Below are positions 9,095 to 45,179 of a DNA stretch of 64,000 nucleotides, piece by piece. Each line of letters starts with the position of its first letter. Position 1 is the first letter of the stretch. The notes under the pieces were generated by a model. That model saw only the letters and a list, made by a program, of their open reading frames with translations, did not search any database and was not told the origin of the DNA. The stretch spans positions 1-64,000 of the forward strand of contig JBGPQV010000009.1 in assembly GCA_041489255.1 (NCBI GenBank). Direction: 5' to 3'. This DNA comes from Thermoplasmata archaeon. GTDB lineage: Archaea; Thermoplasmatota; Thermoplasmata; RBG-16-68-12; JAFNFQ01. The position numbers and the translations under genes were made by a program.

Positions 9095-12886
<3,792 letters not shown>

Positions 12887-13026: not shown

Positions 13027-16000
13027 TCAGGAGTTATGGCTGGAGACGACCTCACTTTCGTCGAACTGCACGCCGAGCTTCTCCGCCACCTTCCTGAGCT
13101 CACTCTCCTTCTTGCGGAGCTTCTCCTCGCGATTCAGTATCTCCATTGCCTTCTTCTGGACTATCTTGACGCGGCTCTCGATGTCACGCCGCCATTCTTC
13201 CATCTCCGCGGTCGACGCCGTGTCTTTCACAGCTTCCGCGAGCTTCTCTTTCAGCTTCACGACCTCTGCCTGCGTCTTATTCGCCTTCTCCGCGAGTTCC
13301 TCCCGTTCTTTTTCGAGCGAGCGTTCCCTTTCCTGGACAAGGTCGTCCCTGGTCTGGATTCTGTCTTCTGCCTCGGTGATCTTGACCTCTCTCGTCCTCA
13401 GTTTCTCCTCTTTGTCGAGGAGCTCCATCGCCTTCTTCTGGAGGAACTTCATGTTCTTCTGGAGCTCCTTCTGCATGTTCTCCGCCTCGGTCTTCTCTTT
13501 CTCGGCCCTGGCACGTAGGCTCAATGCTTCTTCGCGTGCCTTGTGCGCCTGTGCGCGGCTTGATTGCGCTTCCTCCACCCTGCTCTCGAGCTCCTTGCGT
13601 TCTCTGTCGACGTCCTCCATGTTCCGCCGGACCTCGACTTCCAGCTTGGAGAGGATCGAATCGCGCTTGGTGATGTCCTTCTGGATGCTGATGATGAACT
13701 GCTCGCGCGATTTGACATCAGACTCCTTGTTCCGCAGGTCTTCGGTCATGTTCTCCAGGCGCTGGAAATCGGCCGTGAGGGCCTGCTCCCGCTGAGCGAT
13801 ATCTGCCAGTCTAGCCTGGGTGTTCGTTTCTCTCTCTTCTAGTTCAGCGCGATGGGCCTCGAGCTCCGAGGACGACGCCGAAAGGCACTTGGCCTCCTGT
13901 TCCAGCGAGGAGCGCTTGGTCGCCAGTTCCTCGGAGGTCTTCGAAAGGCTGTTCTCCAATGCCACTAGCCTCGCCTCGCGGGCCTGAATCTCGCTCGTTG
14001 CAGATTGGATTCTGACCTCCCTCGATCCGAGCCTCCTCGCGGCCTCGTTCAGCTGGGACACCTGAGCCTCCGCCGCACGCTCAGCTTTCTCCGCAGCAAG
14101 GCGGCGCTCCTCCAGCCGCGCCTCCATCTCCCTGATCTCTTCTGCGTGCCGCTTCATCATGTTCTCTAGTTCTGTCGCGACATACGCCCGGCGCTGCGCT
14201 TCCTCGATTAGCTTCTCCGAGCGTTGCGTTTGCTCGGACACGTCCTGCCTGGACGCTTCGAGCTGGTTGAATTCTTTCTCCTTGGATGCAGCCCATGCTG
14301 CCCTCTCCGCATCCAGTGCCTGCCGGTCGTGCGAAATCTTCGCCTCTCGAGCCGCGAGGCTCTTGTCGAATTCGGAAAGCTCGAGGGCCTTGGCGCTAAG
14401 CCTATCTTGGAGCGCGGCTGATTCCCGCTCGAGGCGCTCTTGGTCCGACTTGAGCTCTGCCTCCTTCGCGGCGAGCGACTGCCGAACCACCCCTGCCTCG
14501 GCGTGGAGTCGCCCTGACTCGTCGGCCTGCCTGACAGTTGCTTGGGTGAAATCGATCTCCCTGGTCTCCAGCAGTTTCGCAGTGGCATCGAGGTCGGCCT
14601 CTTCCCTCGCGAGCCTATCCTCGCGTTCCTTGAGGGTGGACTGTGCCGACGCTGCGCCAGCCTCCTTTCCCGCCAACTCGCGCGACCTCGCCTCCAAGGC
14701 TTTGGCCATCTTGTTCAATTCGCTCTCTCGCTCGCTGACCTGTAGAACGCGGGCAGAAACCTCCTCGTCGAAATGCGCGTTCCTCGACGCCAGCTCAGCC
14801 TCGGCATTCTTCAGCATATCCGCGCGCTTGGCGAATTCGTCTGAAAGCCTTGTCGCCTCTTCGCGAAGCGCCCGCTCTCTCTGCTCGAGTTCGGATGCGC
14901 GCTCGTCAGCAATCTTCTTCGCGGCCTCCGCTGCCGTCTGCGCTTCCGTCGCAGCTTGCATGGCCTGCTTGACCTCGTTCTCGCAGCGCGCCAGATCATC
15001 CTTCGCGCGGTCGATGCGCGATTGATTGGTCTGAATTCTCATCTGTTGTTCCGCGAGGTTTGCTTCGTGTTTCTCGATTTCGCGCAGGCGGTTCTCGAGC
15101 GTTTCCTGCTGCTCCTTCATCTCTTGATCGAAGGCGTCATGCTGCTGATGCAGCAGAACCTGCTGCGACTCCATCGTTTCCTGCCAAGAGCGGAACTCCT
15201 CGGCCTTGCGGGCCTCAATCTCGAGAATCGTGGCGGCCTTCGCCTCGAGGGTCTTCGAAACCTTTTCATTCTCCTGCTCGCGAGCTGCGAGTTCAGCGTG
15301 CGCCTTCGCGATCTTCTCCGCCTCCTCCTTGAGATCGGCCTCCTGTGAAGTGAGCTGGGAGAGGAGGAGTGCATGCTCCTCGGATTGACTTTGAAGCTGC
15401 TCCTCCTTGTCATGCAATGATTGCTCCTTGGATTCGAATTCGATTTCCTTGGCGGCGATGGACTCGCTCTTTCCCCGCCATTCGGCGTCGAATTCCTTCC
15501 TTGCTGATTCGATCTCGTGCTGCTCCGCCCCTAGGGTCTTCTCCTGCTCGACTAGGGACATTTCCATTCGTTCGATCCCCTGAGCCCGCTTGTCGAGAGA
15601 GGCTTTCAAAGCCTCCATCTCATGCGTTTCCCGTTCCACGACCTGTTCCTGCTGCTTCAGTCGGTTCTGCCACTGGGAGAAGCTCGCCACCTTCGTGCGA
15701 ATCGAGGCGGCTTCCCGCTCGAGCTTGGTCATCGTCGTCGTGGTCACATCGAGCGCTCCCTCGAACGCCTTCGATCGCGCTCTCAGCGAATCCCATTTCG
15801 CCTGGAGTTCTCTGTTCGAGTCCTCCAAATTGTTTTCGGCAGTCCTGGCGGCTCTGAGCCGTATCTTCACGTTCTCGTCGAACTTGTCCTGGACATTCAC
15901 GAGCATCTCGCGCGCAAACTCCACCTGCTCCATCGAGACGGGTCCGTAAGCCAGCAGGCACACGGCCAGCGCGTCCCCCTGTACGGTCTGCGCGTGGTAC

Positions 16001-19000
16001 TTCTCCACCTTGACGGCCTTCTCCACGGCGTCCAGCGCTCCCGCCTGCGAAACCTGTTCGTAGGTGACCTCGCAGCGCGGGTCCAAGGTGAATTCCCTGA
16101 GCAGTCTCCTTCTGTCGTCCACAAGGAAGGCCTTCGCGGGCCTCCAGCGCGCTCTTTGCGCTATCATTCCAACCACCAAGAGTATTCCGAACGGGATTAC
16201 CGCCAGCGTGTAGGGGCTCCTCCACCACACCGGGCTGAAGGAGATTCTCACGGATTGAGACGCGGTGGCGGTTCCATCGGATATCGTGACTGTGAAGACG
16301 GTGTCGGTCTGACCCGCCGGGAACGCGATGGTCAGGACGCGGCCGTTTGCCGTGACATAAGGACTGTCCGTTGTCGCGAAGATTTCAGACATGTTCGTGT
16401 CGACGTCGGAGATATAAGGAGTGAGATCGAGGGTGATTGTGGCTCCGTCGTCGATTTGGAGTTCCGCGATCGGCGCCAGGACAGGGGGATCGTTGACTGG
16501 CAAGACGATGACGAGGAATGTTGCTTCCGCGAACGCGCCGGAAGGATCAGTCACCCTGAGGCGGAGGGTCTCTGGACCAAACCAATCCCGGGGCGCCCAG
16601 AAGTCAACCGTGAGGTCGGCGTTTATTTCGAACAAGACACGCGTCGCGCCGAGAACTGTGAATGTGAGCGGGTCGCCGTCGCGGTCAAAGAAGTAGAAGG
16701 CCGGGGATCCGCCGAAGGCATCGAGCCTGACGGTATCCTCATCGAATGAGACAGTCGGGATTGCAGAAAGAGCGATTGGCGCGTCGTTGACGGGTCGTAC
16801 TGTGACAGGGAACGACCCCTCAGCGAAGCTGCCAGAGGGGTCAGTAGCGCGGACACGGAGGTTCTCCAAGCCGGACCAATTCGCCGCTGCCCACAAGTCC
16901 ACAGTTCCATCCGGATTGATCCGAGAGCTAACTTGGACGCCTCCCAGAACTATCAACGTCAGCGGGTCTCCATCAACATCGAAGAAATGGGTCGTCGCGG
17001 CCCCTCCGAAGGCGTTAATCGCGACCGCATCTTCGTCGAAGGCAATCGCTGAGAACTGCGCGATCAGGACCGGCGGATCGTTGACAGGGCGCACTGTGAC
17101 TGTGAACAGCGCCTCAGCAGAACTTCCGTTGGGATCAGTCGCCCGGACGAGCAGAGTCTCGGAGCCGTCCCAGTTCGCCGTTGCCCAAAAGTCGACGGTG
17201 AGGTTCGCATTGATTCGGGTCGAGACCTGAACGCCCCCCAATATCGTGAACGAGAGTGGGTCGCCATTTCTATCGAAGAAGAATGCCGAGATTGGTCCGG
17301 CGAACGCATCAAGAGTGACCGTGTCCTCGTCAAACGTGATATCCGGAATCGGAGAAAGGAGAACGGGCGCGTGGTTCACGGGCATAACCGTGACGACGAA
17401 TGGGCCCTCCGCAAAGTCGCCTGAGGAATCGGTCGCGCGCACCCTCAACGTTTCTGAGCCGGACCAGTTCGTCGCGCCCCACAGGTGCACGGTTCCGTTG
17501 GGATTGATTATGGAGCTGATATTGACGCCCCCGAGTATTGAGATGATTAACGGGTCTCCGTCCGCGTCATAGAAGTTGCTGGTGGCGTTTCCCCCGAAAG
17601 CGTCGAGCGCTGTTGAGTTCTCATTGAAGGAGATTGCAGGGAAAGGCGTCACAAGGACTGGCGGATCGTTCACGGACCGCACGATGACGAGGAACACACT
17701 CTCCGCGAATCCGCCGGAGGGGTCCATAGCCCTCAGGCGCAGAGTCTCAGAACCGAACCAGTTCATGGGTGCCCAGAAGTCGATCGTGTCGTCTGCGTTG
17801 ACCTGCGAGGAAATGTTTGCCGCGTCTAGGACTGCGAATGACTGCGGATCACCGTCAGGGTCGTTGAAGAACGCGGTGCCGGGTGCACCGAGCCCGTTGA
17901 CGGCGACAGTGTCCTCATCGAAGATGACGGTCGGGATTGGGGAAATGAGGACTGGCGGACTCTGAGCTGACGCAATGATCCGAATCACTCTCCACGCTGT
18001 GTCAGTGCCATCCGAGACCCACAGAGTGACCATGAACATGCCCGGAGAGCCATATGTCACATCGAGGAAGGGATACGCGCCCGGGTTTGCTGTGACATTG
18101 GCTGGGTCAGAATCCCAGACGGCAAGTGCCGCAAGTGGTGTGTCCGGGTCCGTAACATAGAACGTGAGGTTGAGGGTGTATGTCACAGCGACGCGGACAT
18201 GCAGGTCCGGAATCGGTGCGATCGAAGGCGGTCTGGATCCGATGATATAGCTGCCTACGCCCTGTTCCTCGTCCCAGCCTGTAAGGTTGACATGATCAAT
18301 CGCAACCGCGCGCAGGGTGACCCCGTTGATGGGGACGCCTGGGTTCCACAGACATGAGCCGTCAATCGTGAAGTCAGATCCAATCGTATGCCATGAGCCG
18401 TCGAAGTAAGTGAAGTCAATGCGCACGACATCGGAATCCGTCGTGTATCCGATCGTGAGCGTCCCGTCCACTGCTTGGTTGTCCACCACGGCTCCGATCG
18501 TGATTGTGGGCGGCGTGTTGTCGACATCGATCGGGGAGACGATAGTCATGTTCGTGGCCGTCACGTTATTCGTCACTGTGGCAAGGAGGCTGCCGCTCAC
18601 GAAGTTCAGTCCAGAGGTATCCCAGTAATAGGTGCCATTGAGGGTTGCGGTGCTCCCAATAGGTGTCCAAACCATCCCATCATTGTAGTCGAACTGGACC
18701 GAGATAGAGTCCGTGCTGTTCGTATACACTATTGGCACGACGCCCGTCAGGAGTGACCCCGATGCAGGGGAGCTGATCGCTATCCACGGTGGTGTGCCGA
18801 GAATCACATGGATTTGCGCTGTCCCGATGATCGGTCCGAAGGAAGCTTGCAGGGTCCCGTTGGCGGCGGGCGGGTTGGATGTGAAAAGAACGTCTTGTCC
18901 CCATGAAATGTTGAGGCTGCCGACACCACCACCGACAGCCCATGTGAAGTTCACGCCGGGTATGGCGTTGTTGTATGAATCGTACGCCTGTGCGTTGAAA

Positions 19001-21408
19001 ATCTGAGACGCGAATGCTTGCATTGTGACGTTGTCCGGCGTGACGATTATGCGGTTCACGGGGCCGGGCGAGACGGTGATGTTGTCGCTGAGACCGGTGA
19101 CGGTGCTGAAGTTAGAGAAGATTCTGATAGTTTCTGCTTTGGTGTACGTCTCTGTTGCCAAGGTGGCGGCACCGCCCGCTGGAATCACGAGCGATGTTGT
19201 ACCCAAGACACCCCCGCCAGGTGTTATCCCGTCTGGGAGGCGAGCCTCCAGGGCGACAATGCCTGTCCAGGAGGTCATCGTCGCGTTCAAGATATCTTTC
19301 GCGGTCACAGTGACCGCGAACGGTGCTCCGGCGACCGCGGACGACGGGGCGGTCACGTAGAAGTGGTCGAGCCGGTGGGTGTAAGTAAGCCGGATTTCCT
19401 CAAGCACGGGAGTGATCAGGGTGTTGGCCGTGGATAGACTGGCTCGGAAACGGATCTTTCCAGTCGCGATGCTTGCGGTCCGGAGATTCGCGGGTGGCGT
19501 GACAGCTATCCATGTACTGCCGGAGTCGAGGGAGTATTGGTACGAAATCGTCTGGCCATTGAGATTCTCCACAACTGTGAAGTTACCCCAAGCGGAGAGA
19601 TCCGCCGGCACGAGGTCGTTTGTCTCGATTGTCCCTGCCGGTGGATAACGGAAATAGGATATGTTCACATCCCCTATGACTGGCATATGCCCCGGGTTGG
19701 TGACCGAGAGAAAGAGGCGGTAATCGACCCACCGCGAACTCCCTGTCATCGGGGAAGCCGATGAACTCGGGTATGGCGCGGACCATCCAGACCATGTGGC
19801 GTCCACAGGATTCGTGTCTCCGATGCGGGTTTGAACAGTGACCGTTGCGTCATTGGGCAGAATGAAGCGAATATAATCCACGTCAACTGGGAGTGCGGTG
19901 CCGGAGAATCCATCGGTAACGAAGAACGCAGCTCGGACTCCGAGCGTATACTCGAACGAGGGTGTATATGTGTCCCGGACGGTCCATGCGGCACCGTTCG
20001 TGCTGGTCGAAGCGGTAAATGTGTTTCCCACGCGCCGGATTCGGACCCACGCGGGGACGGGGTTGCCGCTGGCGACGTCTACGCGGACCGTAGTGGCGGC
20101 ATCGTCCGTCGCATAAACCCTCCAGTTCCTCGGTCCGCCCACATTCGTCTTCGATATGCTGTACCAATTATGGTTGTCAACGAGGATCATGAGGCCAGAT
20201 TTCTGGCCATTCACAGCGGGGTTCACGCTGTATTTCATAATGGCGGTGAAATCCCCGACGAGTCTCTCCGAGAGGACATTGCCTGTGAACGTCCCGTCAG
20301 TGAAGTCAGTCCCGGTACTCGAGACGACATGGAGGCTCCCGGGCGTGGTCACGCCGACGTCATACGAGGACGGCGGGTTAGTCCACGCCCATTTCGGGTC
20401 TAAGGACGCGCCATTGAACTCATCCGAGGCGAGGTCTCGGACCGACGGGTTCCACGAGATGTTCTTCCATGCGGCTATGGTTCCTGGGCCGCCCACCTTG
20501 GAGATGTACTCGGCAGTGGCCCCGACCACTCTGTACCAGATCTCCAGCTTCGGACGTCGGGTCGAGTCGATTGCGTAGTCTGAGGAGTAGAAAGTCTTGT
20601 CCGAGTCTGCCCCGGGGTTCGGTCCTTCGATCAGCAGGCCGTAGTTGGGCAGCCGCCCACGGTGCCATAGGTCGACAAGCTGGGTGACGTTCCAGGTCCT
20701 CCAGCCAGCTGTGTTGTCGATGAACGTCTGGTCGATCACGCGCCCGCTGAAATCGCCGCCCGAGGTCCCCCATTTGATTCCGGTGAGCCGATCGTTCCAC
20801 GTCACTTGGGCCTCGTTCCACTGTGCAACCACATGGTGGAGGCTCGCGGTGAAGGAGTTGCCGAATCCCGCGCTCTGGTAGAGGCTTAATCTCGCGCCGT
20901 CAATCACTGCGCTCGCGGGAATCGCGGAAATGTCGAACCGGAGAATCGGCTGAGCGTCGGGGTTGCGGCCATCGAGGACGAGTGTGGTGCCGGCCCCGTG
21001 GTTGAGGTCCGGGTTCGTCTTCTCTAGCCACGCGTCTTCCCCGGTCGCCCCGGGCTGGAGGGTCAGGAGGGTGCCAGGCCCCGAAGGAATCGCCATTGCG
21101 ACATCCCCTGGCCACCGATTGAGATCGATGTTGGTCGCGCTGTCCGGGCCGGAGAAGTCCGCTTGGGTCGTGCTGTTCCACCAGAAGGTGGGCTGGCGCT
21201 CGAGGGTTGCATTGCTGCCCAGGATTTCCGTGTTCGTGAAGGTGTAGTCCGCAGGGTTCGTGAAGTTCCAGACAGCGTCTGATGTGCCGTCGGGATTGTC
21301 CGTGATCGACGGGTCCGCGGAAACGTGGCGGGAAAAGGGGGTAAGCGACGCCGCAGGAGCCAGCAAGACCATGCTGATTGCTAGGGCGCGCACCAAGTCG
21401 GTTCTCAT
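13027..21408 (-). CDS. Giant single-pass membrane protein: DNRLRE-like, lectin-like, Ig-like and cadherin-like ectodomain, TM, very long cytoplasmic coiled coil
   Basis: Signal peptide; EDAWL..NPDLNHG / NYGLLI / RRPKL; about 6 repeats of ~98 aa with VNDxP and DxDGD; TM near 16160-16215; E/K/A/R/Q-rich heptads from ~15880 to the end. Confidence 0.8.
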   Translation of the reverse strand: MRTDLVRALAISMVLLAPAASLTPFSRHVSADPSITDNPDGTSDAVWNFTNPADYTFTNTEILGSNATLERQPTFWWNSTTQADFSGPDSATNIDLNRWPGDVAMAIPSGPGTLLTLQPGATGEDAWLEKTNPDLNHGAGTTLVLDGRNPDAQPILRFDISAIPASAVIDGARLSLYQSAGFGNSFTASLHHVVAQWNEAQVTWNDRLTGIKWGTSGGDFSGRVIDQTFIDNTAGWRTWNVTQLVDLWHRGRLPNYGLLIEGPNPGADSDKTFYSSDYAIDSTRRPKLEIWYRVVGATAEYISKVGGPGTIAAWKNISWNPSVRDLASDEFNGASLDPKWAWTNPPSSYDVGVTTPGSLHVVSSTGTDFTDGTFTGNVLSERLVGDFTAIMKYSVNPAVNGQKSGLMILVDNHNWYSISKTNVGGPRNWRVYATDDAATTVRVDVASGNPVPAWVRIRRVGNTFTASTSTNGAAWTVRDTYTPSFEYTLGVRAAFFVTDGFSGTALPVDVDYIRFILPNDATVTVQTRIGDTNPVDATWSGWSAPYPSSSASPMTGSSRWVDYRLFLSVTNPGHMPVIGDVNISYFRYPPAGTIETNDLVPADLSAWGNFTVVENLNGQTISYQYSLDSGSTWIAVTPPANLRTASIATGKIRFRASLSTANTLITPVLEEIRLTYTHRLDHFYVTAPSSAVAGAPFAVTVTAKDILNATMTSWTGIVALEARLPDGITPGGGVLGTTSLVIPAGGAATLATETYTKAETIRIFSNFSTVTGLSDNITVSPGPVNRIIVTPDNVTMQAFASQIFNAQAYDSYNNAIPGVNFTWAVGGGVGSLNISWGQDVLFTSNPPAANGTLQASFGPIIGTAQIHVILGTPPWIAISSPASGSLLTGVVPIVYTNSTDSISVQFDYNDGMVWTPIGSTATLNGTYYWDTSGLNFVSGSLLATVTNNVTATNMTIVSPIDVDNTPPTITIGAVVDNQAVDGTLTIGYTTDSDVVRIDFTYFDGSWHTIGSDFTIDGSCLWNPGVPINGVTLRAVAIDHVNLTGWDEEQGVGSYIIGSRPPSIAPIPDLHVRVAVTYTLNLTFYVTDPDTPLAALAVWDSDPANVTANPGAYPFLDVTYGSPGMFMVTLWVSDGTDTAWRVIRIIASAQSPPVLISPIPTVIFDEDTVAVNGLGAPGTAFFNDPDGDPQSFAVLDAANISSQVNADDTIDFWAPMNWFGSETLRLRAMDPSGGFAESVFLVIVRSVNDPPVLVTPFPAISFNENSTALDAFGGNATSNFYDADGDPLIISILGGVNISSIINPNGTVHLWGATNWSGSETLRVRATDSSGDFAEGPFVVTVMPVNHAPVLLSPIPDITFDEDTVTLDAFAGPISAFFFDRNGDPLSFTILGGVQVSTRINANLTVDFWATANWDGSETLLVRATDPNGSSAEALFTVTVRPVNDPPVLIAQFSAIAFDEDAVAINAFGGAATTHFFDVDGDPLTLIVLGGVQVSSRINPDGTVDLWAAANWSGLENLRVRATDPSGSFAEGSFPVTVRPVNDAPIALSAIPTVSFDEDTVRLDAFGGSPAFYFFDRDGDPLTFTVLGATRVLFEINADLTVDFWAPRDWFGPETLRLRVTDPSGAFAEATFLVIVLPVNDPPVLAPIAELQIDDGATITLDLTPYISDVDTNMSEIFATTDSPYVTANGRVLTIAFPAGQTDTVFTVTISDGTATASQSVRISFSPVWWRSPYTLAVIPFGILLVVGMIAQRARWRPAKAFLVDDRRRLLREFTLDPRCEVTYEQVSQAGALDAVEKAVKVEKYHAQTVQGDALAVCLLAYGPVSMEQVEFAREMLVNVQDKFDENVKIRLRAARTAENNLEDSNRELQAKWDSLRARSKAFEGALDVTTTTMTKLEREAASIRTKVASFSQWQNRLKQQEQVVERETHEMEALKASLDKRAQGIERMEMSLVEQEKTLGAEQHEIESARKEFDAEWRGKSESIAAKEIEFESKEQSLHDKEEQLQSQSEEHALLLSQLTSQEADLKEEAEKIAKAHAELAAREQENEKVSKTLEAKAATILEIEARKAEEFRSWQETMESQQVLLHQQHDAFDQEMKEQQETLENRLREIEKHEANLAEQQMRIQTNQSRIDRAKDDLARCENEVKQAMQAATEAQTAAEAAKKIADERASELEQRERALREEATRLSDEFAKRADMLKNAEAELASRNAHFDEEVSARVLQVSERESELNKMAKALEARSRELAGKEAGAASAQSTLKEREDRLAREEADLDATAKLLETREIDFTQATVRQADESGRLHAEAGVVRQSLAAKEAELKSDQERLERESAALQDRLSAKALELSEFDKSLAAREAKISHDRQALDAERAAWAASKEKEFNQLEASRQDVSEQTQRSEKLIEEAQRRAYVATELENMMKRHAEEIREMEARLEERRLAAEKAERAAEAQVSQLNEAARRLGSREVRIQSATSEIQAREARLVALENSLSKTSEELATKRSSLEQEAKCLSASSSELEAHRAELEERETNTQARLADIAQREQALTADFQRLENMTEDLRNKESDVKSREQFIISIQKDITKRDSILSKLEVEVRRNMEDVDRERKELESRVEEAQSSRAQAHKAREEALSLRARAEKEKTEAENMQKELQKNMKFLQKKAMELLDKEEKLRTREVKITEAEDRIQTRDDLVQERERSLEKEREELAEKANKTQAEVVKLKEKLAEAVKDTASTAEMEEWRRDIESRVKIVQKKAMEILNREEKLRKKESELRKVAEKLGVQFDESEVVSSHNS

Positions 21409-21663
21409 TGCGACGACTCCCCCTTTCATCCAGCAGTCGGGCTGCTGGGCTGGGAATCGCGATTTTACCTGCCTTCTTTCTATATAACAGGCGTCTGGTG
21501 GTTATCTCTTCAGAGAATCACCAGATGGAATCTCTCGAATATCGGCGGACCCCAAATCCGTCGATTCCCGCCATTTCCATTTGCGAGAACGGGATGATGG
21601 CGGGGCGGAAAAATGGATGGATGCAGGTCGTTGGCTACTCCTGCCGTCCTCCGTAGCGCAGGC

Positions 21664-43200: not shown

Positions 43201-44903
43201 AGGGCGTGGGCTTCAGCGTCGAGGGTGCGACCAAGCTCCGCGTCGACCCTTACAACATATCGAAGGTGTACCTGAACTGGAACCTGCAGGGGAGCACGAA
43301 ACCTGGCAGGATGCTCGGCGCTCTCTACATCGGTCCCTCGAACGCGCCACTCATGATACTGGTCCCGATAACGCTGGTCATCGACTTCACTGCACCGAAG
43401 ATCACCAAGTTCTCCGTTACGGCGACAGGCGACAACCGCGTGGACGCCGCAACGGGCAGGACGACGAACGACAGGATGCCGAGTCTCGTCCTCGAGGTGA
43501 GGGACGACGACAGGGGCGAGCTGGACCCCGCGAGCGTCAGGACATACATGGACGGGGAGAACGTCACAGCATGGACTTCTGTCTCCTTCGCATTCAGCCC
43601 CCACCCGACCAGCGCGGTCCTTGGCCGGTGGAGCGGGAGCATCCGGTACGTGCCGATAAGGCCGCTCAGCCCGGGGCCCCACTTGTTCAAGGCCTCGGTG
43701 GCTGATGTTGCCGGGAACTTTGTCGATAGGGACTATGTCTTAGTGATCGACCCCGATGCCCCGCCAATATCCATAGAAGGCCCGCCGGTCCGGTACACGA
43801 ACGTCTCTGATGCGGAGATCCGCGGGACCACGGAGCCGGGCGCGACCGTCGTCATGGGGAACGCGACAGTCGTGGCCGATCAGGACGGGGCTTTCTCCTT
43901 CAATGTGCGCCTCACTCCAGGGATCAACGAGTACACCGCAAGGGCGACCGACTGGTTTGCGGCAGGCACTGGAGGAACGCAGGTCAGCGGCAATTACGCC
44001 GATGCCGCGATCAGGATAGTCTATGACACCGTACCGCCGGAGCTGCAGGCGGCGATTTCTCCGTCCCTGGTCACGAGCGGCGAGGCCGTCATGGTCTGGG
44101 GGCAGGTGAGCGACAGCGCCTCGACGATCGAACTGGACCCGACCACGGTGAGGGTGACCGTGAACGGAAACGACATCCACGTCAGCGCGGACGGGAAGTT
44201 CTCGGTGTGGGTCACGTTGTCGCTCGAAGGCGACAACCTGATCACGATCACCGCGACGGACCTTGCGGGCAACACCGCCAGCCAGGAAATCACGGTCACA
44301 AGGGATACAGAACCGCCAATCCTCGTGCTCGATGACATCCCCCGTGTTGTGACAGAAAGCACCGTCACGGTCTCCGGGAGGACGTCGTCAGGGATGAGGG
44401 CGAAGGTGAACGGGTTCGAGGCTCCCGTGAACCCTGACGGGACATTCTCGAAGCAGGTGCAGCTCAGCTACGGCATGAACTACATCGTGGTCAGGGTGAC
44501 CGACGATGCCGACAACGTCAACGAGATGAAGGTCGGAGTGTATTACGCCTCCAGCTTTGCGCCGGAATCGGGGGCGCCAGGCGGCTACCTCAACATGTCC
44601 CCGGGGGTGTGGGCGGCGATTGCCGTGGTGCTCGGCGTTGTGATCGGGCTGGTTCTCTCCATTCTCTTCAAGCCCAAGGGTGGAACGAAGGGCGAACCCC
44701 AGGAGGGCGAGGCCGTGGAAGTGGAGGGCGAGGAGAAGCCGAAGGAGGAAGAGGCTCCGAAGAAAGAGGTTCCACCTGAGACCGAGCCGACGAAGCCCGC
44801 AGAGGACAAGAGGGAGGCTGCGCTGCGCAAGGCCCTCGAGGACGGGAAGATCAACAAGGAGGTCTACGAGAAGAACCTGGCCCGCATCAAGGGGAAGGCA
44901 TAG
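37293..44903 (+). CDS. Giant membrane-anchored S8 (pyrolysin-like) serine protease with WD40 and carbohydrate-binding-like insertions
   Basis: Signal peptide; IAIVDDGID (Asp ~37827), HGTLMAS (His ~40248), SAGNDG, SGTSLSSP (Ser ~40893); GH...WD repeats ~39090-40045; C-terminal Ig-like repeats, TM ~44607-44670, charged tail. Confidence 0.88.
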   Translation: MLKTSLLALLVLVLLVVPSVPYVQGTHVAGVEESGQAISLDSTADQTQGWTQTSIEDTLVADAGKQFVDVVVFTSDAGELGRALSSMPHQGVVGTASGGGFSTPRIQVPAWALERIKSLPSTIGVYDYESPERQIMDDAEIMSGEGVVPTNIDSVNNHKAPAAWARGYRGEGTEIAIVDDGIDFAHPDLLGTVARYNASEVPQATLNQKPWLGTYDGWPIAYDPTSMSGWFAKGGKAEGTWYANTTSTDDTVWHTIKVDGKNDFWTDGSEKIGSDSNSDIVEINGTETRQDYNLIDLWATQDQNNWYFAFSSKANHSTMNFGLYINTTSSPPWTAGATYDPVNGNLITPVSNHTPEFAIYMTHNGGQLPGHYDKNDTIDNATVWKWIGSAWGSPVNVTDSPINGQFGYGKYDFKKGVGFVEIMIPKSYLGNPPGVSVELFTTGTNVSHAQDTCYEDPNVNFANPDWSSTPTQLSAFVQVERSFWHHTRNKVGDRATLSWPIHYITTGTSKSGSYFFGDHPDKNLPQTRVLVVDEAAAGVYDTVYDTVYVDLDHNKDFHNDKALKKLGKYDASLNWHPVDWNGQGTIYDETSYMDFYDPGGAVRTVAYSSDGKWLVSGGEDHQVVLWDTSNWAIKWSTNPRDGRPVSSAFSPDSNSVAVGFHDASGGRYYVVIWDVATGTITHTLAGHTGSVNGLAWSQDGTKIASASSDGTGRIWVVATGSYIELAGHTNAVTGVAWRWSDNIVATSSLDGTIRLWDSSGTSTARLVYGPPLSAVDFNPTGTILAAASFDGNVTLWNTVTRLFSAAAAHGGNGVLSVKFNNTGTGLVTTSNVTGDFDATVVTWDVVAWDNFFPRASGASACYESARGYRSPAGAFAANGTQVASACGSSSIKLWDNNLRLQGTLRGHRIGVTDYTIWDAGDGLPDISGGMIYFIAQNYYYAATTSWGTPIPYSDAYKSRNGQENLFIPVNGTLVAFMGEMDLGNKHGTLMASSIVGRGASRYYDSTTTIPYPMKEPTAPQVVGIAPAAKLVPIANVYTSSVFEGWWFTVQGYDGAPASGDEPQIAANGLSFSSTFEDGWDFYSRFADWITMVYASGSVAFTMSAGNDGNGYGTVTSPGSGAGVISVGASTDFFYRKASGLEGGSSQSYGDVVPFSSRGPTALGAPDPHMLANGRMSYGSTPLNLVIPYNGQIASELWSGTSLSSPLAAGILAMTEQAYKQKHGHWPDAATAKSLLMSSCDDINYDAYSQGAGFLNADRATKLAEESEGFYVTPSLWTPGNYSGQKYEAFTSLLDPGSSDSQTFTIGNIHQTAARTANLSAEIFHRFSQVDLAVNTLADFTGVAIDNYVTLSVLSPAAQTLGGPGAYQLIPPTVMKKRASINVADWIRADLLRVTISANFTSLDGDGDGILGGSKDFTYNIDLYDWTWDGLNPIMPHTGNFADLNRMTINHPTANVVQATIRNPAMRTHDGLVVGIRRFPYGAKDIYFRISIEFFEKTTWSPFLTLDNNSVNVPPNSNATFTATVNVPSNIPIGSYEGSIYVKGNPQHDIKTWEVVRTNTKYAALNQFNIVSIAVWRGAVKLRPGIDYVAYNDTGVVEFKIVLGLGNIMKVDYWYDQVVTIPVSVTVPAHGVIFNWSAGQVPGQDEFYSNVISAGFGLGGQSGDWRFYPTLLPQGGLYDLSKTLRFIAEVSWDLNRTDIDVFSFGPGGSVVAVGSDLSTQRYGPFLVGRNNGGSTTTALVFTTTGGNMEIASPAFAGGLNIIAVHVVHMNGLRYRENVSGEVGLFGLNPKELTVVTNKLYGRRAFQIFSTMSWPGIGAVSAGPAPPERYMNEHIKQDSTEGTDFVSILSKGSYTRLVRVKPSALIFSANTSSDQGYTDKPCSDLDLGVFLDGKGPGNVPDGIAQPEEFVVYSAGQSATEEVRLIRPTVEDDPDTPSINEMEVGAPYLIKVLGYIVPWAPYGTFNVDVTLVQGVGFSVEGATKLRVDPYNISKVYLNWNLQGSTKPGRMLGALYIGPSNAPLMILVPITLVIDFTAPKITKFSVTATGDNRVDAATGRTTNDRMPSLVLEVRDDDRGELDPASVRTYMDGENVTAWTSVSFAFSPHPTSAVLGRWSGSIRYVPIRPLSPGPHLFKASVADVAGNFVDRDYVLVIDPDAPPISIEGPPVRYTNVSDAEIRGTTEPGATVVMGNATVVADQDGAFSFNVRLTPGINEYTARATDWFAAGTGGTQVSGNYADAAIRIVYDTVPPELQAAISPSLVTSGEAVMVWGQVSDSASTIELDPTTVRVTVNGNDIHVSADGKFSVWVTLSLEGDNLITITATDLAGNTASQEITVTRDTEPPILVLDDIPRVVTESTVTVSGRTSSGMRAKVNGFEAPVNPDGTFSKQVQLSYGMNYIVVRVTDDADNVNEMKVGVYYASSFAPESGAPGGYLNMSPGVWAAIAVVLGVVIGLVLSILFKPKGGTKGEPQEGEAVEVEGEEKPKEEEAPKKEVPPETEPTKPAEDKREAALRKALEDGKINKEVYEKNLARIKGKA
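38906..38937 (+). repeat. 12-bp in-frame tandem duplication
   Basis: GGTCTACGACAC x2 + GGTCTACG, encoding VYDT-VYDT-VY. Confidence 0.85.
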
Positions 44904-44945
44904 GGCGCAAAGCTATTCTACCGGAGGCGGTTAGGCACCGCCCAA

Positions 44946-45017
44946 GGGCCGATAGATCAGTGGAAGATCGCCGCCTTCGCAAGGCGGAAGCCGTGGGTTC
45001 AAATCCCACTCGGTCCA
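44946..45017 (+). tRNA. tRNA-Ala(CGC)
   Basis: Acceptor GGGCCGA/TCGGTCC with G3:U70, anticodon stem CCGCC/GGCGG loop TTCGCAA, T-arm GTGGG-TTCAAAT-CCCAC, discriminator A. Confidence 0.95.
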
Positions 45018-45179
45018 CTTCACTCTGGGGAACGACCTTCGAACATGCAGAATGATGAAGATCCGCTAGCGCAAGAATCGTGGAATCAAGATGGCTCTAG
45101 ATTTCGAGCGCGTCGAAGCGTCTTCCCGCTGAGCGCAATGATGAGTGCATACGAGGGAACCCTGCTCCAATGCGATCCG

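Follow-up and report, generated by a model that had tools for sequence, protein, structure and literature searches.

In a 64,000-nucleotide window of the genome of an uncultured Thermoplasmata archaeon from sediment (assembly GCA_041489255.1, contig JBGPQV010000009.1, positions 1 to 64,000, our contig C9; G+C about 60%), there is a giant gene on the minus strand that encodes a surface protein in which a large ectodomain is joined through a single transmembrane (TM) helix to a long cytoplasmic coiled coil. The genome (G000) has 2.74 Mb in 41 contigs and is 96% complete. The domain families of the ectodomain were already known. In contrast, the cytoplasmic part, composed of a longin-like domain next to the membrane, a coiled-coil rod, and a conserved C-terminal motif, is, judging by its occurrence in homologues, a self-standing and lineage-specific module and thereby a narrowly distributed new protein family. 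The coordinates of the giant, of its parts, and of the genes related to it are collected in Table 1. A previous sequence-only reading of this DNA had placed a protein of 2,800 aa between 13027 and 21408; it is indeed encoded by one open reading frame (ORF), but 2,800 aa are reached from the first ATG at 21429, whereas a start at 21408 gives 2,793 aa. The latter, Met8, is probably the real start, because the N-termini of the homologues begin at the position of Met8.

Table 1. Features of the giant gene, its window neighbours, and related genes elsewhere in the genome (residues counted from the first ATG; AF2, AlphaFold2; KD, hydropathy value)
Feature	Residues	Coordinates	Strand	Basis or remark
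Giant gene	2,800 aa + stop (13027-13029)	13027..21429	minus	single ORF from first ATG
Signal-peptide-like N-terminus, then invariant Asp39-Pro40	8-38	21316..21408	minus	KD peak 1.81 at residues 12-30
DNRLRE / CBM96 domain	~130-298	20536..21042	minus	NF033679 E 1.6e-28; PF24517 E 9.4e-13
Concanavalin-A-like lectin/glucanase-type domain	335-522	19864..20427	minus	PF17851 GH43_C2 E 4.6e-13; PF07081 DUF1349 E 6.9e-9
Middle ectodomain, composition beta-rich	523-1130	18040..19863	minus	no significant family match
Cadherin-like / tandem-95 region	1131-1735	16225..18039	minus	Big_9 1.8e-27; Cadherin_4 1.1e-17; Cadherin_5 2.4e-14; tand_rpt_95 1.7e-38
Single TM helix, then QRARWRPAK	1739-1757	16159..16215	minus	KD 2.09
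Longin-like domain (predicted fold)	~1763-1862	15844..16143	minus	conservation; AF2 pLDDT 84; Z 8.4 / rmsd 1.9 A / 82 residues
Coiled-coil rod, proline-free, heptad periodicity	~1863-2650	13480..15843	minus	composition, periodicity, AF2 helix 1833-1899
C-terminal conserved region; motif (F/I)(L/V)QKKAME(L/I)L...EEKLR at 2662, 2756	2651-2800	13030..13479	minus	homologue motif scan
HSP20 gene		12359-12886	minus	directly downstream of giant gene, same strand
CDC48-type double AAA ATPase gene		10141-12330	minus	downstream of giant gene, same strand
C2 paralog (L002/L057)	1,9xx aa	G000:C2:33114-38843	minus	same DNRLRE/ConA/cadherin-like plan, TM, longin-like domain
Soluble paralog	249 aa	G000:C1 (L003:1492-2238)	minus	longin-like domain, acidic linker, short coil, C motif
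Soluble paralog	284 aa	G000:C13:~44214-45065	plus	longin-like domain, acidic linker, short coil, C motif
Ras-family GTPase expansion, examples		C4:112012-114294, C7:60687-61816, C4:150878-152046		Pfam matches in G000

The hydropathy profile of the giant exceeds a KD value of 1.6 at two peaks only, namely the N-terminal signal sequence and the segment of residues 1739-1757, with positively charged residues directly after the latter. N-glycosylation sequons are enriched in the ectodomain, with 31 observed versus 17.5 expected from composition, and are at the expected level in the tail, with 3 observed versus 3.0; additionally, there are homologues of the tail module that carry neither a signal peptide nor a TM segment. 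On the basis of the positive-inside residues, the sequon enrichment outside, and the TM-less homologues, it is nearly certain that the giant is a membrane protein of type I whose ectodomain faces outwards and whose residues 1758-2800 are cytoplasmic. A word-seeded protein-cluster search with residues 1730-1930 as query (E <= 1e-3) found 66 homologous clusters of 1,968-4,782 aa, and those bearing a source name come from metagenome-assembled genomes (MAGs) of Thermoplasmata or Methanobacteriota archaea. The TM-proximal domain is present in all 66, and where it begins, 63 show a KD peak above 1.7, equivalent to the TM helix of the giant; the tail past the domain extends for 870-1,524 aa in 59/66, the other seven being contig-end fragments or short-tailed forms. 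Contigs from independent metagenome runs span the TM segment (X5 record 25, 15874-16470; X3 record 16, 16016-17171), and a genome of the same genus, G177, holds the same giant gene and then the same HSP20 and CDC48 genes. Given that 66 clusters share this plan and that contigs of independent runs cross the TM, the junction between ectodomain and coil is genuine, and we consider the overall architecture nearly certain; the two ways in which the sequence-only reading could have failed, i.e., an assembly chimera or a coiled coil outside the cell, are thus both disposed of, and its single TM linking the outer and inner parts holds.

The ectodomain of approximately 1,700 aa is, with good support from its domain families, adhesin-like and glycan-binding-like. 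Behind the signal-peptide-like N-terminus, D39 and P40 are invariant among the 30 sequences aligned, and the DNRLRE/CBM96 domain exceeds its curated cut-offs clearly (NF033679, 99.9 bits with a cut-off of 34, over residues 131-298; PF24517, 48.7 bits with a cut-off of 26), as do the matches of the concanavalin-A-like domain that follows. The repeat profiles of the cadherin-like region are also above cut-off (Big_9, 96.5 bits vs. 23.6; Cadherin_4, 64.7 vs. 25.1; Cadherin_5, 53.4 vs. 26.5; tand_rpt_95, 130.5 vs. 90), and by repeat dissection this region resolves into five exact 98-aa repeats, from ~1155 to 1644, each beginning with VN(D/H)xP and containing DxDGDP, both of which are putative Ca-binding-type motifs, plus a sixth, degenerate cadherin-like repeat (1645-1735) that reaches the membrane segment. 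The DNRLRE-like and lectin-like modules and the approximately six cadherin-like repeats that had been read from the sequence are therefore upheld, in contrast with the Ig-like modules, for which a Pfam scan of residues 520-1160 gave Big_3_3 as its best match at a non-significant E of 0.062. The same domain families, over curated cut-offs, are those of bacterial and archaeal cadherin-like and DNRLRE (CBM96) surface proteins; however, such adhesins are not known to extend beyond a short tail or sorting signal, whereas the giant adds some 1,040 cytoplasmic residues. To our knowledge, prokaryotic adhesins have been treated as purely external devices.

The most conserved stretch of the whole protein is the TM-proximal domain (residues ~1763-1862), at most about 8 residues away from the inner face of the membrane. 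The globular segment of about 100 aa that had been noted after the TM is confirmed here as a conserved domain, with a predicted longin-type fold that had gone unnoticed. Its AlphaFold2 (AF2) model, made with 33 sequences, has a mean pLDDT of 84.1 and the order strand-strand-helix-strand-strand-strand-helix, with the final helix continuing unbroken into the rod (helix 1833-1899); by DSSP this is the secondary-structure order of longin domains (E11-19, E24-29, H38-44, E53-56, E59-65, E69-76, H81-). An independent AF2 model of the 249-aa paralog (pLDDT 84.4) shows the same order of strands and helices. In an exhaustive structural comparison, the best match of the giant's domain was the N-terminus of AP-4 mu (9u9i_M, Z 8.4, rmsd 1.9 A, 82 residues), followed by AP-2 mu (2xa7_M, Z 8.3), sedlin (Z 7.7), and the VAMP7 longin domain (Z 7.6), with the C-terminal domains of Asgard Rag-like GTPases, MglC, LAMTOR, and Roadblock proteins at lower positions. 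The paralog model gave the same match list, headed by 9pwb_M with Z 9.2 over 94 residues, and between them the two models match the longin domains of AP mu-subunits, VAMP7, sedlin, and synbindin at Z 7.6-9.2. All the top non-helical matches are longin or roadblock folds, but their Z values of 8.4 and 9.2 compare with a best Z of 7-8 in the background of the aligner. The best Foldseek E-value for the domain was 1e-2, no longin or roadblock family was matched in Pfam by residues 1754-1930 at E <= 10, and a profile search of the domain against PDB chains returned nothing below E = 1. Because of this Foldseek value, the closeness of Z to background, and the lack of a sequence-profile match, we describe the modelled domain as longin-like at the fold level and not as a member of the curated longin family.

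The predicted fold order is shared with the longin domains of AP mu/sigma N-termini, VAMP7/Sec22/Ykt6, TRAPP sedlin/synbindin, and Mon1-Ccz1, and with the Roadblock/LC7 proteins MglB and LAMTOR, although none of these families has sequence-profile similarity to the giant's domain, and the family of the giant is confined to a few Thermoplasmata lineages. In longin SNAREs, too, a coiled coil and a TM adjoin the longin domain; however, the R-SNARE order is longin-SNARE-TM, and the giant has it reversed, as TM-longin-coil.

Following the domain, about 800 of the approximately 1,040 cytoplasmic residues form proline-free heptads. Residues 1920-2800 consist of 68% E/K/R/Q/A/L, 0% Pro, and 1% Gly, and the mean 3.5-residue periodicity power is 0.92 in the rod versus 0.15 in the ectodomain. 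The heptad coil of about 900 aa that had been read up to the C-terminus stands in its heptads, but not in its extent or its ending, as the cytoplasmic part is longer and terminates in a conserved motif that had escaped notice. Since the rise of a coiled coil is about 0.148 nm per residue, some 800 residues in an unbroken coil without fold-back would make a rod of roughly 120 nm. Among 30 homologues, many positions along the rod are invariant or nearly so, and this conservation along its length suggests that the rod is more than a spacer; nor is it a recent tandem expansion, given that self-BLAST of the tail produced no off-diagonal match at E <= 1e-3. An SMC identity was considered and rejected, since SMC_prok_B reached 43.9 bits, far from its equivalog cut-off of 567, and only coiled-coil stretches were matched.

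At the far end of the rod, the motif (R/N)RVKI(I/V)QKKA(M/L/F)(E/D)LLDREEKLRK lies within the last 100 residues of 61/66 homologues, and a looser form of it occurs twice in the last 220 aa of 49/66. The same C-terminal motif ('KIIQKKA..LLDREEKLR') is present in the small paralogs, and in the model of the 249-aa paralog the segment that contains it is a pair of long helices (133-201 and 205-248, pLDDT > 90). The giant and this paralog, which share a genome, have 64-69% identity in the motif, compared with 17-26% in the domain. A complex prediction combining residues 1758-1900 and 2640-2800 of the giant with the 249-aa paralog scored 0.09, where the mark is 0.32, in a run that had no controls; this result favours neither binding nor its absence.

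The search for homologues with other ectodomains, which the sequence-only reading had called for, was rewarding. BLAST similarity between the window protein and a second class of giants begins at residues ~1692-1735 and continues to the C-terminus, so the TM and tail are joined to at least two unrelated ectodomains. In this second class are 19 of the 66 giants, which have no DNRLRE or ConA family at all, and three of them (P0023, P0046, and P0078) gave no Pfam-A match over the whole protein; the ectodomain class of these three and the 16 further giants, of 2,000-3,250 aa, begins with ..DPLAPFR. More generally, a profile of the domain compared with 1.84 billion representative proteins matched 84 at E <= 1e-3 and 46 at E <= 1e-10, which fall into four groups: the giants; N-anchored members of 400-560 aa whose domain comes straight after a bare N-terminal TM (e.g., P0114, P0125, P0134, and P0140); soluble members of 250-350 aa that combine the domain with a short coil and the C motif; and soluble members of about 750 aa that start with MFGKK..GFLVD. 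Across the family, the length of the rod varies from ~100 to ~1,500 aa while both ends are kept. The module matched no curated family, and its clusters are named 'hypothetical protein' only. Among the results returned by full-text literature searches there was no paper on a family combining a longin-like domain, a coil, and the C motif, and the passages of PMC10936438 around 'Thermoplasmata' and 'longin' mention no such protein.

The distribution of the family is narrow, with the domain present in 80 of the 401 genomes of the class. By taxonomic family, it occurs in 1/1 genomes of f1, 33/34 of f5, 3/3 of f6, and 42/46 of f10, and in none of the genomes searched in other families; f1, f5, and f6 belong to the order of the window and have the giant forms, while f10 belongs to another order and has the soluble form of about 750 aa. 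Within the order, the C motif was found in 1/1 genomes of f1, 26/26 of f5, and 4/4 of f6, with 1-4 matches per genome, versus 0/29 of f2, f3, f4, and f7, and the domain and the motif therefore have the same phyletic pattern there, limited to f1, f5, and f6.

The genome of the window contains four members of the family, i.e., the giant, the C2 paralog, and the two soluble paralogs. The C2 paralog has a domain 47-49% identical to that of the giant, but a coil of only ~130 aa and no C motif. In f5, at least 11/26 genomes have an N-anchored paralog of ~460-490 aa directly upstream of the giant and in the same orientation, the distance between the two motif matches being equal to the length of the giant, and in two f5 loci a third paralog of ~230-270 aa precedes the pair. 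This conserved same-strand pair, sometimes a trio, is seen at loci L048, L049, L050, L051, L052, L054, and L056, the paralog at L049 and L052 being placed from motif positions. The adjacency of the paralogs in f5 is the sole informative gene context; the other neighbours are housekeeping genes.

From the common phyletic pattern of domain and motif, the adjacency in f5, and the high identity of the motif, we infer that the members of the family may act together. The reading that we tentatively favour, leaning towards it but stopping short of expecting it, is that the giant is a stalk anchored in the membrane, which co-assembles beneath it with its paralogs and couples the binding of something at the surface to the cell interior. 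As to how the scaffold would work, our best guess is that the rod would dimerise in parallel, that the longin-like domains would form a platform apposed to the membrane, and that the C-terminal motif would connect the rod with further members of the family or with a partner common to them, this joining role being suggested because paralogs resemble one another much more closely in the motif than elsewhere. The outcome would be a sub-membrane coiled-coil assembly with a mechanical or spatial coupling of the ligand of the ectodomain to the interior. The earlier proposal of an adhesion receptor coupled to an internal scaffold thus survives in its adhesin-like ectodomain and its cytoplasmic coil, but its filament finds no counterpart, as no cytoskeletal or filament-forming family was matched over threshold by the rod.

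This last negative is one of several points that weigh against such an assembly. The RNase_Y_N match of the rod is generic coiled-coil similarity, compositional or below cut-off, and we treat in the same way the match to PF27881, which the protein atlas names CRWN_N, a plant lamin-like coil; it is precomputed on most homologues and also on members with short tails, but one copy truncated at its C-terminus, 100% identical in the queried segment (residues 1730-1930), does not carry it. The rod might also fold back on itself, thereby halving its reach. In the model of the 249-aa paralog, the placement of the C-terminal helices is of low confidence (pTM 0.40), and because of this no head-to-tail contact is indicated. 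In addition, the C2 paralog and the ~750-aa proteins of f10 have the domain without the C motif, so the two are not obligatorily coupled, and the paralogs are unlinked in the window's own genome.

As a first alternative, which we hold to be unlikely although deserving of attention, the giant could be a transmembrane signalling protein whose longin-like domains, alone or together with that of a paralog, dock Ras-family GTPases or act as a guanine nucleotide exchange factor (GEF) or GTPase-activating protein (GAP) platform for them, with the rod scaffolding effectors; binding at the ectodomain would in this way be passed on to GTPase switches. Many of the longin and roadblock folds at the top of the structural matches have been solved with GTPases (AP-3-Arf1, Mon1-Ccz1-Ypt7, DENND1A-Rab35, MglB-MglA, and Rag-Ragulator). 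What makes this alternative attractive is that the Ras family has 19 matches above the Pfam cut-off in the genome of the window, alongside 8 Roadblock/LC7 genes, some of them in tandem. It also has a parallel in Asgard archaea, since longin domains in their multidomain proteins are taken, in the passages of PMC10936438 that concern them, to suggest small-GTPase activation. However, the fold matches are barely above the background of the aligner, with Z of 8-9 against 7-8, and, as described above, no sequence profile of longin or roadblock families nor any PDB chain supports them. Furthermore, the expansion of the GTPases is order-wide and independent of the module, which weakens the alternative: at E <= 1e-15, there are 2-19 Ras-family matches per genome in 61/61 genomes of the order, compared with matches in 1/14 reference genomes, and f2, f3, and f4, which yielded no match to the module, share the expansion equally. 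We accordingly rejected the Ras-family count as a correlate of the module, as the counts do not track its presence within the order. No GTPase gene is a conserved neighbour; a weak Ras-like fragment just upstream of the C2 paralog (C2:38972-39106, E 3.4e-4) is below cut-off.

Two further alternatives we regard as improbable to a similar degree, both below the signalling one. The rod could extend radially into the cytoplasm for ~100 nm as a golgin-like tether, with its distal motif capturing the nucleoid, vesicles, or a division or segregation factor, positioned in this way relative to sites of contact. This agrees with the membrane-fixed end, the long proline-free rod, the short and highly conserved motif at the free end, and the changing length of the rod between two constant ends. 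It agrees less well with the soluble members, which have both ends and no anchor, and with a sequence conserved along the rod, unlike that of a pure spacer. The other possibility is that the coil serves for clustering alone, making the adhesin oligomeric or more stable for the sake of avidity, with no partner inside the cell. Coiled coils commonly drive oligomerisation, and the same tail is attached to two unrelated ectodomains, as clustering would allow; but 800-1,500 aa are far beyond what oligomerisation needs, the module is kept in soluble and N-anchored proteins that have no ectodomain to cluster, and the most conserved parts are precisely the distal motif and the longin-like domain. The last alternative, an artefact in which an adhesin gene and a coiled-coil gene were fused during assembly or in which the coil is outside the cell, is hardly credible, since all it has in its favour is the precedent of archaeal coiled-coil stalks on the cell exterior, such as tetrabrachion of Staphylothermus and SlaB of Sulfolobales, whereas the junction recurs in 66 clusters from many assemblies, in independent-run contigs, and with the same neighbours in G177, and the signal peptide, the single TM with its positive residues, the sequon asymmetry, and the TM-less homologues all place the coil inside.

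The tetrabrachion and SlaB proteins are nonetheless instructive to compare in design, as archaeal surface proteins that likewise join beta-rich domains to a long coiled coil and a single TM, although their coil is outside and their TM is C-terminal, whereas in the giant the coil comes after the TM and is cytoplasmic. In outline, the giant also works like golgins (giantin and golgin-84), the nesprin/SUN LINC complex, and bacterial EzrA, with a single TM anchor, a rod of ~100 nm, and short conserved end elements. There is, however, no sequence or family kinship with any of them, the anchor of the giant precedes the rod and carries a giant ectodomain on its other side, and its host is an archaeon without known endomembranes. 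Another likeness, by analogy only, is with the animal cadherin-catenin-actin system, given the ectodomain with Ca-type repeats, the single TM, and a cytoplasmic part that possibly reaches an inner structure; but classical cadherins have short tails that bind catenins, while the tail of the giant is itself the rod.

Taking this one step further, we can imagine, as a long shot that we rate below all of the functional alternatives above, that the soluble, N-anchored, and adhesin-fused longin-domain coils constitute an undescribed membrane skeleton in a few Thermoplasmata lineages, in which the giants would provide the physical connection between outside contacts and the inner lattice, and whose longin-like platforms would be read or set by the expanded Ras-like GTPases of the order. 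If true, this membrane skeleton would be a prokaryotic convergent counterpart of the cadherin-catenin, LINC, or golgin-GTPase systems, and one found outside the Asgard archaea. More modestly, a conserved family of adhesins prolonged into the cytoplasm by a ~100-nm rod behind a longin-type domain would be a candidate for archaeal transmembrane mechanical or spatial coupling. The combination of longin-like domain, coil, and C motif makes a compact new protein family whose soluble members of 250 aa should be easy to express and solve. It would also show that a fold familiar mainly from trafficking in eukaryotes occurs in Thermoplasmata with 10-19 Ras-like GTPases per genome, and it bears on how far eukaryote-like building blocks of membrane organisation have spread beyond the Asgard archaea.

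Regarding the remaining genomic setting, the neighbours of the giant gene in the window are housekeeping genes (HSP20, CDC48, Rrp4, SHMT, ThiF, and riboflavin genes). The order of the giant, HSP20, and CDC48 genes (the latter two at window 10141-12886) is kept in G177 and not in f5, where the flanking genes encode a Cys/Met pyridoxal phosphate (PLP) enzyme and a methylguanine methyltransferase. Contigs from two RNA-library runs are 90-99% alike to the gene over 19 and 5 of 30 bins; transcription is not established by these matches, because the contigs come partly from a relative and DNA carry-over is possible. A gene for a membrane protein with a DnaJ domain directly precedes that of the 249-aa paralog, in the same orientation. 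In f10 (loci L034-L039), the soluble homologue of ~740 aa is syntenic with a heavy-metal P-type ATPase, a RIO/APH-like kinase, and an NAD-dependent DNA ligase, and besides its MFGKK..GFLVD start it has a conserved C-terminus of its own, ..QVIxEQVDSIxEITxKLEELR; a locus search with one such protein found 7 loci, all titled as Thermoplasmata or Methanobacteriota MAGs. The metagenome runs that contain DNA of the window are from sediment and freshwater sediment.

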